Shown in pieces: positions 2,940-4,479 of a stretch of 5,452 bases of DNA. The notes beneath the pieces are model-generated. The model had not been told where the DNA came from, ran no database searches, and saw only the letters and a list, made by a program, of their open reading frames with translations. Position 1 is the first letter of the stretch; each line of letters opens with the position of its first letter. Source of the DNA: a virus (lineage: Duplodnaviria; Heunggongvirae; Uroviricota; Caudoviricetes); the IMG/VR virus record IMGVR_UViG_2778261005_000009. One strand, given 5' to 3'. A program made the translations under genes and the position numbers.

Positions 2940-3497
2940 ATGAGCACTATTACCAGAGAACGCGCGGAGATTAAATCATACATCACAGGCTTCCTGAGCG
3001 ACTCGGCGCACGATAACAAGTCTTCAGACAGCCTGCTGGCTAATGTGTTTCGTATCGCGCTGGCATCACTGGAAGCAGAGCCGATAGCAATGGTAGTGCC
3101 TGATGAAATGGATTTGCTTACCTGCCATCTCGACGGTGTAACTAAAACATATGCTGATGGCTGGAACGCCTGCCGCGTCGCCATGCTTCAGGCCGGAAAC
3201 TTTCGGGAAAATAAGAATTCGTCAACCAACAATTTTCGGGAAATCTCGGAAACGTCAACCAGATCTCCGATAACTCTGGATGGCTGGATAAGCTGTACTG
3301 AGCGAATGCCTGAAAAGAGCCAGAACGTGCTTATTTCGATGAATATCGATAGCGAGGCTGGGCCATTAATATATTCCGCACGCTATCTCGGAGGCACGTT
3401 CCGGCGCGGAGGTATAGCAGTTAGTCCGGGTAATGATCTTAGGCAAGCAACCCACTGGATGTCGCTACCAGAACCGCCGCAGGAGGTGAATCAATGA
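2940..3497 (+). CDS. DUF551-like phage protein (185 aa)
   Basis: ATG 2940 preceded by AAGGA (2927-2931) at 8-nt spacing; stop TGA 3495-3497. The C-terminal segment (ITLDGWISCTERMPEKSQNVLIS...YLGG..F) resembles the DUF551 domain as I recall it. The linker contains an in-frame tandem duplication (see repeat feature). Confidence 0.75.
   Translation: MSTITRERAEIKSYITGFLSDSAHDNKSSDSLLANVFRIALASLEAEPIAMVVPDEMDLLTCHLDGVTKTYADGWNACRVAMLQAGNFRENKNSSTNNFREISETSTRSPITLDGWISCTERMPEKSQNVLISMNIDSEAGPLIYSARYLGGTFRRGGIAVSPGNDLRQATHWMSLPEPPQEVNQ
3198..3263 (+). repeat. Imperfect in-frame tandem duplication (2 x 33 bp) inside the DUF551-like gene
   Basis: aaCtttcgggaaaATAAGAATTcgtcaaccaAC (3198-3230) versus aaTtttcgggaaaTCTCGGAAAcgtcaaccaGA (3231-3263); encodes NFRENKNSSTN / NFREISETSTR. 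Confidence 0.6.
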
Positions 3498-3577
3498 CCT
3501 GGCCTGAAGCATTCACAACGGTAGGAATTGCGATGGCGGTGGCGCTGGTGGTGTATTCGATTTGCCGCTGGGGATAA
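3494..3577 (+). CDS. Putative 27-aa hydrophobic micro-protein, translationally coupled to the DUF551-like gene
   Basis: ATG 3494 forms an ATGA overlap with the upstream stop and is preceded by AGGAGG (3481-3486) at 7-nt spacing; stop TAA 3575-3577. Product MTWPEAFTTVGIAMAVALVVYSICRWG is a single predicted TM helix. It falls below the ORF-track length cutoff. The SD may be coincidental, since it also encodes residues of the upstream protein. Confidence 0.35.
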   Translation: MTWPEAFTTVGIAMAVALVVYSICRWG

Positions 3578-3612
3578 AAACGGTTTGCGGGAAAAGGATA
3601 GTTAAGTAGAAT
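3574..3612 (+). promoter_or_regulatory. Candidate promoter for the hok mRNA
   Basis: Candidate -10 elements GATAGT (3597-3602) or TAGAAT (3607-3612), with a weak -35 (TTGCGG 3585-3590 for the latter). Placement is constrained by the 5'-3' complementarity, which requires the transcript to start at or before about 3613. No strong consensus match. Confidence 0.25.
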
Positions 3613-3630
3613 TGCTGCGGGTGCTTGAGG
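3613..3630 (+). promoter_or_regulatory. 5' element of hok mRNA complementary to its 3' end (tac/fbi-like long-range pairing, 5' partner)
   Basis: tgctgcgggtgcttgagg (3613-3630) pairs antiparallel with cctcaacgcacccgcg (3993-4008): 6 bp, a one-nucleotide bulge (C3999), then 10 bp including one G-U. Confidence 0.45.
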
Positions 3631-3664
3631 CTATCTGCCTCGGGCATGAACACCAACGGCAGAT

Positions 3665-3739
3665 AGAGAAAAGCCCCAGTTAACATTACGCGTCCTGCAA
3701 GACGCCTAACATTAATCTGAGGCTCAATCTATGAACGGC
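3665..3739 (-). ncRNA. Putative Sok-like antisense RNA (type I antitoxin), about 75 nt
   Basis: Minus-strand sigma70-like promoter (below) would start transcription near + coordinate 3739. The transcript is antisense to the upstream in-frame ATG (3731) and its SD (GAGG 3719-3722). It ends in a terminator-like structure on the minus strand: outer stem ccucag/cugggg (3717-3722 with 3674-3679, one G-U), inner stem gcguc/gacgc (3690-3694 with 3701-3705), then U-tract cuuuucucu (+ 3665-3673). Ends are approximate. Confidence 0.4.
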
Positions 3740-3745
3740 AAATCT

Positions 3746-3774
3746 AGGTTAGCCTCTTACGTGCCGAAAGGCAA
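3746..3774 (-). promoter_or_regulatory. Candidate promoter of the Sok-like antisense RNA
   Basis: On the minus strand: -35 TTGCCT (+ coordinates 3774..3769), 17-nt spacer, -10 TAACCT (3751..3746). The -35 overlaps the hok SD region on the opposite strand. Confidence 0.35.
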
Positions 3775-3787
3775 GGAGAAGCAGGCT

Positions 3788-3943
3788 ATGAAGCAGCAAA
3801 AGGCGATGTTAATCGCCCTGATCGTCATCTGTTTAACCGTCATAGTGACGGCACTGGTAACGAGGAAAGACCTCTGCGAGGTGCGAATCCGAACCGGTCA
3901 GACGGAGGTCGCTGTCTTCGTAGACTACGAATCTGAGAAGTAA
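3788..3943 (+). CDS. hok: Hok/Gef-family type I toxin (51 aa membrane peptide)
   Basis: ATG 3788 preceded by AGGAG (3774-3778) at 9-nt spacing; stop TAA 3941-3943. Product MKQQKAMLIALIVICLTVIVTALVTRKDLCEVRIRTGQTEVAVFVDYESEK aligns along its length with plasmid R1 Hok ([52 protein letters not shown]) and is very close to chromosomal HokD/RelF as recalled. The track ORF 3731..3943 is an in-frame upstream extension (ATG 3731), possibly a mok-like leader reading frame. Confidence 0.9.
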   Translation: MKQQKAMLIALIVICLTVIVTALVTRKDLCEVRIRTGQTEVAVFVDYESEK

Positions 3944-3992
3944 GAGACCAGGCGGGGGAGTAATCTCCCGCCACCTCTGATGTGTCAGGCAT

Positions 3993-4008
3993 CCTCAACG
4001 CACCCGCG
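3993..4008 (+). promoter_or_regulatory. 3' element of hok mRNA complementary to its 5' end (fbi-like, 3' partner)
   Basis: cctcaacgcacccgcg (3993-4008) is the antiparallel partner of 3613-3630. It implies a transcript of about 400 nt, similar to the known R1 hok mRNA length. A further imperfect hairpin lies at 3951-3972 just after the hok stop. Confidence 0.45.
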
Positions 4009-4009
4009 C

Positions 4010-4037
4010 TTTACCATACTGAAAATGCTGTTTGAAT
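4010..4037 (+). promoter_or_regulatory. Candidate sigma70 promoter with extended -10 for the YgiW/BOF-family gene
   Basis: -35 TTTACC (4010-4015), 16-nt spacer, TG at 4029-4030 followed by -10 TTGAAT (4032-4037). Position fits a transcription start about 20 nt upstream of ATG 4063. Weak consensus. Confidence 0.3.
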
Positions 4038-4062
4038 GTTCATCTCTGAAAGAGGACTATGA

Positions 4063-4407
4063 ATGAAAAAGGTATTGATTGCAGCACTTATTTCCGGTGT
4101 GTCTTTTGGCGCTTTTGCACAGCAGGGTGGTTTCCAGGGGCCAGAAGCAGAGCGTTCAACAGTAGCGCAGGCAAAAGAACTGAAGGATGATGCATGGGTT
4201 ATCCTTGAAGGGAGCATCGTTAAAAAAGTGGGTGATGAACGTTATGAGTTTCGTGACAATAGCGGGACAATTGTCACGGATATTGATGACAGCGTATGGG
4301 CCGGGCAGAATGTTTCTCCGAAAGACAAAGTAAGAATTGAGGGTGAAATTGATAAAGACCTGAGCAGTGTTGAAGTTGATGTAAAGGCACTGAAATTATT
4401 AAAGTAA
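4063..4407 (+). CDS. YgiW/YdeI (BOF, bacterial OB-fold) family periplasmic protein with signal peptide (114 aa)
   Basis: ATG 4063 preceded by AGAGGA (4051-4056) at 6-nt spacing; stop TAA 4405-4407. N-terminal signal peptide MKKVLIAALISGVSFGAFA followed by QQGGFQGP, then C-terminal IVTDIDDSVW...VRIEGEIDKD...VEVDVKALKLLK, which matches the BOF/YgiW pattern. Confidence 0.88.
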   Translation: MKKVLIAALISGVSFGAFAQQGGFQGPEAERSTVAQAKELKDDAWVILEGSIVKKVGDERYEFRDNSGTIVTDIDDSVWAGQNVSPKDKVRIEGEIDKDLSSVEVDVKALKLLK

Positions 4408-4424
4408 CCGCCCCTGCTTGTTAA

Positions 4425-4453
4425 GCCCGTCTTACTGACGGGTTTTCTGTTTG
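4425..4453 (+). terminator. Rho-independent terminator downstream of the YgiW/BOF-family gene
   Basis: Stem GCCCGTC (4425-4431) / GACGGGT (4437-4443), loop TTACT, followed by a T-rich tract (ttttctgtttg), 18 nt after the stop codon. Confidence 0.8.
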
Positions 4454-4479
4454 TACATTCCGGCGTATTGCCTTACAAT
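4451..4479 (+). promoter_or_regulatory. Candidate sigma70 promoter for the 4529 ORF / DUF968-like gene
   Basis: -35 TTGTAC (4451-4456), 17-nt spacer, -10 TACAAT (4474-4479). A TGACA-N5-TGTCA palindrome (4502-4516) sits between the -10 and the SD. Confidence 0.35.

Follow-up and report, generated by a model that had tools for sequence, protein, structure and literature searches.

The hok mRNA of plasmid R1 (hok/sok, parB) is described by a model with a translational activator (tac) and a fold-back inhibitory element (fbi) (PMC9841398), and a related type I toxin-antitoxin system, hokW-sokW, is carried by Stx phages such as VT2-Sakai. Here we analysed a hok-type locus in a stretch of 5,452 nucleotides from a virus of the Caudoviricetes (IMG/VR record IMGVR_UViG_2778261005_000009), which as a whole is called the window below. 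An earlier note on this DNA had pointed to long-range complementarity between the two flanks of a hok reading frame, of the kind that joins the ends of hok mRNAs. We conclude, with a probability of roughly 85%, that tac (3619-3630) and fbi (3993-4005) form the fold-back helix in the mRNA of a hok-family toxin, and that the locus is a hokW-sokW type I toxin-antitoxin allele of Stx-type lambdoid prophages.

In R1 the hok -10 box, TATGAT, is located at -12 to -7, and transcription is abolished when it is mutated (PMC9841398). The open form of the truncated R1 hok mRNA has tac paired to the ucb element and the Shine-Dalgarno (SD) sequence paired to dcb, and the R1 hairpin equivalent to the one found here between the hok stop codon and fbi is needed for the stability of the truncated mRNA (PMC9841398). 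HokW of the Stx2 phage Sp5 is toxic and is neutralised by sokW RNA, which is transcribed from its own promoter (Takada et al., 2021, PMC8621323). The hokW and sokW RNAs were detected in lysogens, and hokW gave two shorter RNAs in addition; the system aids lysis and phage release after induction, and it depends partially on RNase III and Hfq (PMC8621323). That study leaves tac and fbi undiscussed, and 3' processing was not established there (PMC8621323).

Comparison with described hok loci

Among genomes, the window matches an Escherichia coli chromosome best (99.6%), where the locus is part of a lambdoid prophage and is situated between a DUF551 gene and DUF968-RusA-Q. Identity to hokW-sokW of the Stx phages (Sp5, VT2-Sakai and 933W-type phages) is 97.3% over window positions 3560-4454, and the open reading frames (ORFs) there are annotated as MokW-like and YgiW/YdeI. 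Pairwise alignment with hokW of VT2-Sakai/Sp5 showed that the -10 box, tac, the hok coding sequence, fbi and the sequence from fbi to the start of the BOF gene are identical to the window. Between 3590 and 4070 the VT2-Sakai locus has 12 substitutions, one of which, at 3951, makes the 3' hairpin of the window longer by one pair. The prophage position is different: the window locus adjoins DUF551, upstream of DUF968-RusA-Q, whereas the VT2-Sakai locus is found near the LPD5 giant ORF.

The likeness to R1 concerns the whole layout. In both loci the 5'-terminal sequence GG(G/C)(U/C)GCUUGAGG pairs with a segment about 50-60 nt past the hok stop codon, the elements follow each other in the order -10 box, tac, ucb, mok SD, dcb, hok SD, hok, stable hairpin and fbi, and a Sok promoter-like site is present at the homologous place. 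The stretch between +1 and the last base of fbi measures about 391 nt in R1 and 387 nt in the window, and both mRNAs fold back in silico. However, the R1 Hok protein is only about 44% identical (PMC8621323), and the helix, which has 12 bp and a bulged C in the window, consists of 7 contiguous pairs plus 2 across an interior mismatch in R1, with C-G instead of U-A at helix position 4. In addition, the window leader has an extra hairpin of about 20 nt (approximately 3689-3706) in the ucb/SD stem-loop, R1 carries a terminator-like hairpin past fbi that the window locus does not have, and the setting is a plasmid for R1 and a prophage for the window. Among the E. coli K-12 types, Hok of hokD (relF) is 92% and that of hokC (gef) about 80% identical to the window protein, and the fbi sequence of hokD-type loci is the same as in the window.

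A scan against Rfam returned one match, RF01794 at 3619-3793 on the plus strand (105.6 bits, E = 5e-24, gathering threshold 59, model positions 1-157 of 157). This family is named 'sok' but models the hok mRNA leader, and its full-length match, together with the partner switching in silico described below, identifies a leader with tac, ucb, mok SD, dcb and Sok target; the first 12 nt of the match are tac. The toxin ORF belongs to Pfam PF01848 (HOK_GEF; 81.1 bits against a cut-off of 22, full profile covered). A mok frame with its own SD and an upstream in-frame ATG is present as well and is annotated likewise as MokW in VT2-Sakai; by analogy, its translation would be coupled to that of hok.

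Transcript start and extent of the helix

A repeat search of the window found eight of eight complementary bases between 3617-3624 (GCGGGTGC) and 4000-4007 (GCACCCGC) and six of six between TTGAGG at 3625-3630 and CCTCAA at 3993-3998, with a single bulge, C3999, on the 3' side between the two paired blocks. Drawn out, the duplex reads 5'-UGCUGCGGGUGCUUGAGG-3' over 3'-UCGCGCCCACGCAACUCC-5' and has 15 pairs, 14 of them Watson-Crick and one G·U (3616·4008), while no partner for 3613-3615 was found within 3993-4008. The pairing of about 16 bp proposed in the earlier note for 3613-3630 and 3993-4008 was thus right in its bulged C and slightly generous in its count. The proposed spacing of about 380 nt agrees well with the 362 nt between the arms and the 387 nt from 3619 to 4005.

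To place the hok and Sok promoters, homology to R1 and the conserved spacing of a TAnnnT hexamer were used, as generic consensus scans had found neither promoter, nor a terminator near fbi. The hexamer is equally distant from the tac motif GGG(U/C)GCUUGAG in almost every homologue collected; the Citrobacter locus L042 has GAAAAT. With the -10 box TAGAAT at the R1-equivalent place and at the conserved spacing, transcription most likely starts at G3619. Positions 3613-3618 would then be promoter-to-start DNA and not RNA. An extension of the helix into 3613-3618 as RNA was therefore rejected, as these positions are upstream of the predicted +1 and the extra pairs 3617-3618/4006-4007 are not kept in relatives. 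Because these two pairs are located upstream of the start, the relevant helix is 3619-3630/3993-4005 (12 bp plus the bulge), to which the RNA part of the pairing is likely limited. Of the 5' arm originally proposed, 3619-3630 stands and 3613-3618 has to be dropped.

The pairing energy calculated with RNAduplex is -21.1 kcal/mol for the 12-mer 3619-3630 and -28.4 kcal/mol for the 18-mer. For comparison with chance, every 12-mer and 18-mer of the window, on both strands, was paired with the 130 nt located 325-454 nt downstream. The observed energy was matched by 5 of 9,984 placements for 12-mers and by 4 of 9,984 for 18-mers, some of which may overlap this element, giving a chance frequency of the fold-back pairing of about 5e-4.

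Predicted folds and partner switching

The minimum free energy (MFE) and centroid folds of 3619-4010 are closed exactly by the tac/fbi helix (-156.9 kcal/mol, z = -6.7), with pair probabilities of 0.96-1.00 for all 12 pairs, and forcing fbi to be single-stranded costs 13 kcal/mol. In the same fold ucb (3672-3677) is paired to the mok SD region (3719-3724). An R1-type control mRNA (L049, +1 to +398) showed the same 5'-3' closure in the same program, so that the comparison with R1 suggested in the earlier note comes out in favour of a shared fold-back. The helix also closes the fold of an 834-nt read-through model (3619-4452).

When fbi was blocked, tac (3619-3626) refolded onto ucb (3671-3677) and the mok SD (3719-3722) onto 3753-3756, the arrangement of the R1 open form. 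Taken together, a scan of 3' ends and the blocked-fbi fold show the open form as the MFE structure or near it. Thermodynamic prediction gives strong backing to the closed state, and to the switch backing of a qualitative kind only. The identification of the 5'-3' pairing with the published tac/fbi model, as made in the earlier note, is consistent with the RF01794 match, the position of fbi, the R1 control fold, the covariation described below and the refolding with blocked fbi, all of which agree.

Conservation and covariation of the helix

For the comparison of homologues 47 loci were gathered from one-genome-per-species contigs, in addition to IncF and phage-plasmid loci, one of which encodes a Hok identical to that of R1. 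Alignment of these loci (A1) comprises 34 distinct predicted mRNAs. A plasmid search with the locus returned mostly hokD-annotated copies on phage-like plasmids and short leader-only matches, which just served as extra homologues. In 33 of the 34 mRNAs, namely those with a preserved 3' flank, tac has its best partner within 75 nt of the stop codon in the aligned fbi, with energies of -17 to -25 kcal/mol. fbi starts 49 nt after the hok stop codon in the window, and the best partners in the homologues are positioned 45-56 nt after it. The sole exception is L014, a K-12-type hokC with foreign sequence right after the 3' hairpin. In R1 (L049) and L052, 9-10 of the 12 helix positions are paired, since their transcripts start one column later.

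In the raw MAFFT alignment 87% of the cells pair, compared with 32-56% when the partner is slid, and the observed covariation score was reached by none of 500 shuffles. Since sequences that have no bulge are shifted by one column, the raw count comes out too low for the distal half of the helix; pairs were therefore tabulated again for each sequence from RNAduplex. Position 4 is U-A in 18 sequences, C-G in 13, U·G in 2 and a mismatch in 1; position 9 is G-C in 31, G·U in 2 and unpaired in 1; position 10 is A-U in 30, G·U in 2 and unpaired in 2; position 11 is G-C in 26, G·U in 7 and A-U in 1; and position 12 is G-C in 21, A-U in 11 and unpaired in 2. Compensatory changes are thus seen at three positions (4, 11 and 12), and the covariation that the earlier note had asked of orthologous loci is present. 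On the opposite strand the G·U variants would read A·C, which argues that the plus-strand RNA, rather than a DNA repeat, is under selection. Escherichia-type loci have C or U as the bulged base, and Photorhabdus, Pantoea and R1-type loci have no bulge.

Two very short contigs from non-enterobacterial assemblies in the collection, L013 (Acinetobacter idrijaensis, 275 bp) and L021 (Xanthomonas pisi, 431 bp), encode Hok proteins 91-100% identical to that of the window, and the flanking leader of L021 is of the hokW type. Most likely both are E. coli or phage DNA contamination of these assemblies.

The region downstream of fbi

Several observations weigh against the interpretation as a switchable tac/fbi mRNA of the R1 kind. 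The +1 at 3619 is placed by the spacing of the -10 box only, as no good match to a -35 element was seen for hok and the consensus promoter scan of the region returned none. In truncated RNAs the precise position of the 3' end decides whether the MFE structure is closed-like or open; at 3976, the sole 3' end for which the two were directly compared, they differ by 1.4 kcal/mol, and the MFE structure of 3619-3976 has a local 5' hairpin and no tac/ucb pairing. Likewise, tac/ucb is not the MFE structure of the R1 control truncated at +361, and because this control fails in the same way, a single truncated-mRNA MFE is uninformative as a test for the open form. The U-A/C-G split at helix position 4 largely follows clades, so that the covariation represents few independent events. 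A preprint (bioRxiv 10.1101/2025.08.07.668861) cites the chromosomal hokA, hokB and hokC as not mediating post-segregational killing. Finally, terminator scans found no terminator-like site from 4006 to 4422.

This last point is the most specific to the allele. Homology to other hok loci stops near 4015, and most relatives carry there, about 10 nt past fbi, a terminator hairpin such as ACCCGCTTCGGCGGGTTTTT. A terminator soon after fbi, as in the typical architecture, is thus not found in the window, a feature shared with the functional hokW of Sp5. Since the allele has no terminator after fbi, a transcript end just past 4008 is an assumption, and fbi may be internal to a longer RNA whose 3' trimming kinetics may not be those of R1. 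Of 5,426 complete E. coli genomes, 550 contain the BOF segment and 550 likewise the junction of fbi and BOF, so the two form a fixed module. In about 10% of complete E. coli genomes, O157:H7 included, the terminator is replaced by this tightly linked YgiW/BOF gene.

It is conceivable, although we consider it rather unlikely, that the helix forms with fbi far from the 3' end: the hok promoter would drive an RNA of about 830 nt encoding hok and BOF (ygiW) and ending at 4423-4452, and the fold-back would be an internal long-range clamp that opens when an endonuclease cuts the RNA or when the whole BOF segment decays, instead of through the trimming of about 40 nt as in R1. The missing terminator and its replacement past fbi fit this alternative, as do the closure of the 834-nt fold, the finding of the BOF gene only together with this junction, and a consensus scan that showed no promoter-like site between fbi and the BOF start. 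On the other hand, such scans miss weak promoters and Rho-dependent termination. In R1 two full-length forms exist and the full-length hok mRNA ends a few nt past fbi, upstream of a terminator-like hairpin; as the 398-nt form ends there, a 3' end near fbi is possible with no adjacent terminator. Northern blots of Sp5 (6% polyacrylamide) showed one 'full-length' hokW band and two smaller ones, for which no sizes are stated. A more specific version, in our opinion doubtful, holds that the bicistronic hok-BOF RNA is closed internally by tac/fbi, that in lysogens the toxin leader provides a periplasmic OB-fold 'moron' gene with its promoter and a stabilising 5' structure, and that Hok is activated only once the RNA is cut between fbi and BOF or its BOF segment decays. 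If this were true, toxin activation would be coupled to the turnover of the downstream BOF message.

In the E. coli hokD-type locus L002 (1150-1290) about 23 extra bases are inserted between the arms of the terminator past fbi (ACCCGC-CCATCGCCGTGATCTCTCAGCGT-TTCGGCGGGTTTTT), and the 3' hairpin of this locus is likewise enlarged.

Functional locus or relic

Pairing by itself is no proof of function. Many chromosomal hok loci are disrupted, and the complementarity could be a relic, i.e., the helix of a decayed hok copy that persists by descent and regulates nothing. K-12 hokD, which keeps fbi and has lost the whole leader including tac, so that its match begins only at window position 3774, and the K-12-type hokC, whose fbi was lost through an insertion immediately behind the 3' hairpin, illustrate such decay, and the failure of chromosomal loci in post-segregational killing tests, as cited in the preprint mentioned above, points the same way. 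The window locus, in contrast, keeps both arms, and every cis element is intact: ucb, mok SD, dcb, a predicted Sok promoter-like site and terminator, and the 3' protective hairpin. Its tac, fbi and coding sequence are identical to those of the Sp5 hokW, which is toxic, is kept in check by sokW and has a share in lysis and phage release, and the same arrangement occurs at an identity of at least 99% in about 500 genomes. A relic is hence very improbable. The view of the earlier note that the locus is functional and not a decayed remnant is reasonable, given that the hok ORF, the -10 box, tac and fbi are identical to those of the experimentally validated hokW (VT2-Sakai/Sp5).

Alignment A1 also holds a truly decayed hok locus that contrasts with the window. 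In L014 (E. coli ECDA1023, hokC-type) columns of about 388-440 read CATAAGCGCTAACTTAAGGGTTG... directly past the 3' hairpin and fbi is gone; we take this sequence to be an IS186 end.

A chance inverted repeat or a DNA-level repeat (recombination site or transposon end) in place of an RNA structure is already effectively refuted, even if short G+C-rich complementarities do arise by chance and the region contains several more inverted repeats of 8-9 nt: such a repeat was rejected on the energy-placement test, the covariation score and the per-sequence pair table, the G·U pairs of several homologues work solely in plus-strand RNA, the position is kept with compensatory changes across Escherichia, Photorhabdus, Pantoea and IncF plasmids, the homologues pair better than in slid registers, and the predicted +1 is the first base of the 5' arm.

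Feature coordinates and the Sok antisense RNA

The features of the locus are collected in Table 1. The hairpin between the hok stop codon and fbi may, by analogy to R1, provide the processed 3' end.

Table 1. Features of the hok-type locus and its surroundings in the window.
Feature	Position	Strand	Basis and remarks
-10 box of the hok promoter, TAGAAT	3607..3612	+	read from sequence; R1 has TATGAT at the equivalent place
tac, 5' arm of the fold-back, GGGUGCUUGAGG	3619..3630	+	pairs with fbi in full-length RNA; 3619-3626 pair with ucb when fbi is missing
Predicted Sok antisense RNA, about 76 nt	3664..3739	-	long terminator hairpin, then UUUUCUCU; both ends putative
ucb / anti-SD, AAGCCCC	3671..3677	+	partner of the mok SD in full-length RNA and of tac once fbi is missing; AGCCC invariant in A1
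mok Shine-Dalgarno, GAGG	3719..3722	+	pairs with 3674-3677 (full-length) or 3753-3756 (fbi blocked); invariant in A1
mok-like ORF, 70 codons	3731-3943	+	ORF list; ATG at 3731, in frame with hok
Sok promoter-like site, TTGCCT-17 nt-TAACCT	3746..3774	-	pattern search; R1 has TTGCGC-17-TATCCT at the homologous place
dcb, within invariant GCCUCUU	3753..3756	+	pairs with mok SD in the open form; invariant A1 columns
hok toxin ORF, 51 aa + stop	3788..3943	+	PF01848; identical to HokW of VT2-Sakai (alignment A3)
Stable 3' hairpin, GGCGGGGGA-GUAA-UCUCCCGCC	3951..3972	+	9 bp, G+C-rich; conserved in A1; predicted 3' end of truncated mRNA and exonuclease block
fbi, 3' arm of the fold-back, CCUCAA-C-GCACCC, C3999 bulged	3993..4005	+	repeats, folds, pair probabilities, pairing in homologues
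Terminator-free spacer	4006..4062	+	alignment A2
YgiW/YdeI (BOF) family ORF	4063..4407	+	Pfam PF04076, 115 bits
First terminator-like hairpin with U-tract downstream of fbi	4423..4452	+	terminator scan

The minus-strand fold from 3737 to 3664 has an energy of -34.5 kcal/mol, and sokW RNA of the near-identical Sp5 locus was seen on a northern blot (PMC8621323). We infer that TTGCCT-17-TAACCT is the Sok promoter, a site (3774 to 3746) that the generic promoter scan did not report. Eight of the 12 substitutions that separate the window from VT2-Sakai hokW fall in 3730-3744 (ATGAACGGCAAATCT versus ATGCTGAACACATGT). This segment spans mok codons 1-5 and the predicted single-stranded 5' end of Sok, and it is the most variable leader stretch in A1. 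A genome has a median of 2 and up to 10 hok places, and the variation could reflect diversified Sok/hok recognition among hok copies in one genome.

The extra leader hairpin, GCGUC-CUGCAA-GACGC at 3689-3706 in the ucb/mok-SD loop, is not part of the Rfam model, R1, hokC or the Photorhabdus loci. It is common to hokD/hokW-type loci, and on the other strand it lengthens the predicted terminator hairpin of Sok.

Two further observations concern coding sequences. In the MFE fold the Tyr47 codon UAC of hok (3926-3928) is located in the 7-nt loop CUACGAA (3925-3931) of an A-U closed hairpin at 3921-3935. This loop presumably matches the anticodon loop of tRNA-Arg(ACG) that is recognised by TadA. A-to-I editing from Tyr to Cys is described for hokB and for a C-terminal site of hokC, hokD and hokE (bioRxiv 10.1101/2025.08.07.668861), and by analogy the Tyr47 codon of the window hok may be edited likewise. 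Upstream of the locus, an ORF of 27 codons (MTWPEAFTTVGIAMAVALVVYSICRWG, 3494-3577) overlaps the DUF551 stop codon and stops shortly before the hok promoter; it resembles a small hydrophobic peptide and is unannotated in the closest genome.

Discussion

As a tac/fbi-regulated mRNA, the locus would work in the following way. Judging from homology, transcription from the hok promoter (-10 at 3607-3612) would begin at about G3619. As long as the RNA is full-length, its 5' end is predicted to pair with fbi, which leaves ucb (3671-3677) free to sequester the mok SD (3719-3722); as known from R1, mok and hok would then be untranslated and Sok could not bind. Slow 3'-to-5' trimming, as in R1, would remove fbi and halt at the hairpin 3951-3972. 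Now tac would pair with ucb and the mok SD with dcb (3753-3756), giving the translatable and Sok-accessible form, which is the best or near-best fold in silico. Sok (about 3739 to 3664, minus strand) would bind this open form and lead to its decay or, if Sok is lost, Hok would be made and damage the inner membrane, both outcomes being known for R1 and hokW-sokW.

The mechanism and the locus are both already known, and the finding is correct but ordinary. Its significance is mostly one of annotation; a loose end of some value is where the hokW transcript ends. The analysis places the tac, ucb, dcb, fbi and Sok elements, which the functional study of hokW-sokW leaves undescribed, on a hokW-type locus. 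The prophage copy of hok carries the full set of regulatory elements of a live type I toxin-antitoxin module and is no remnant.

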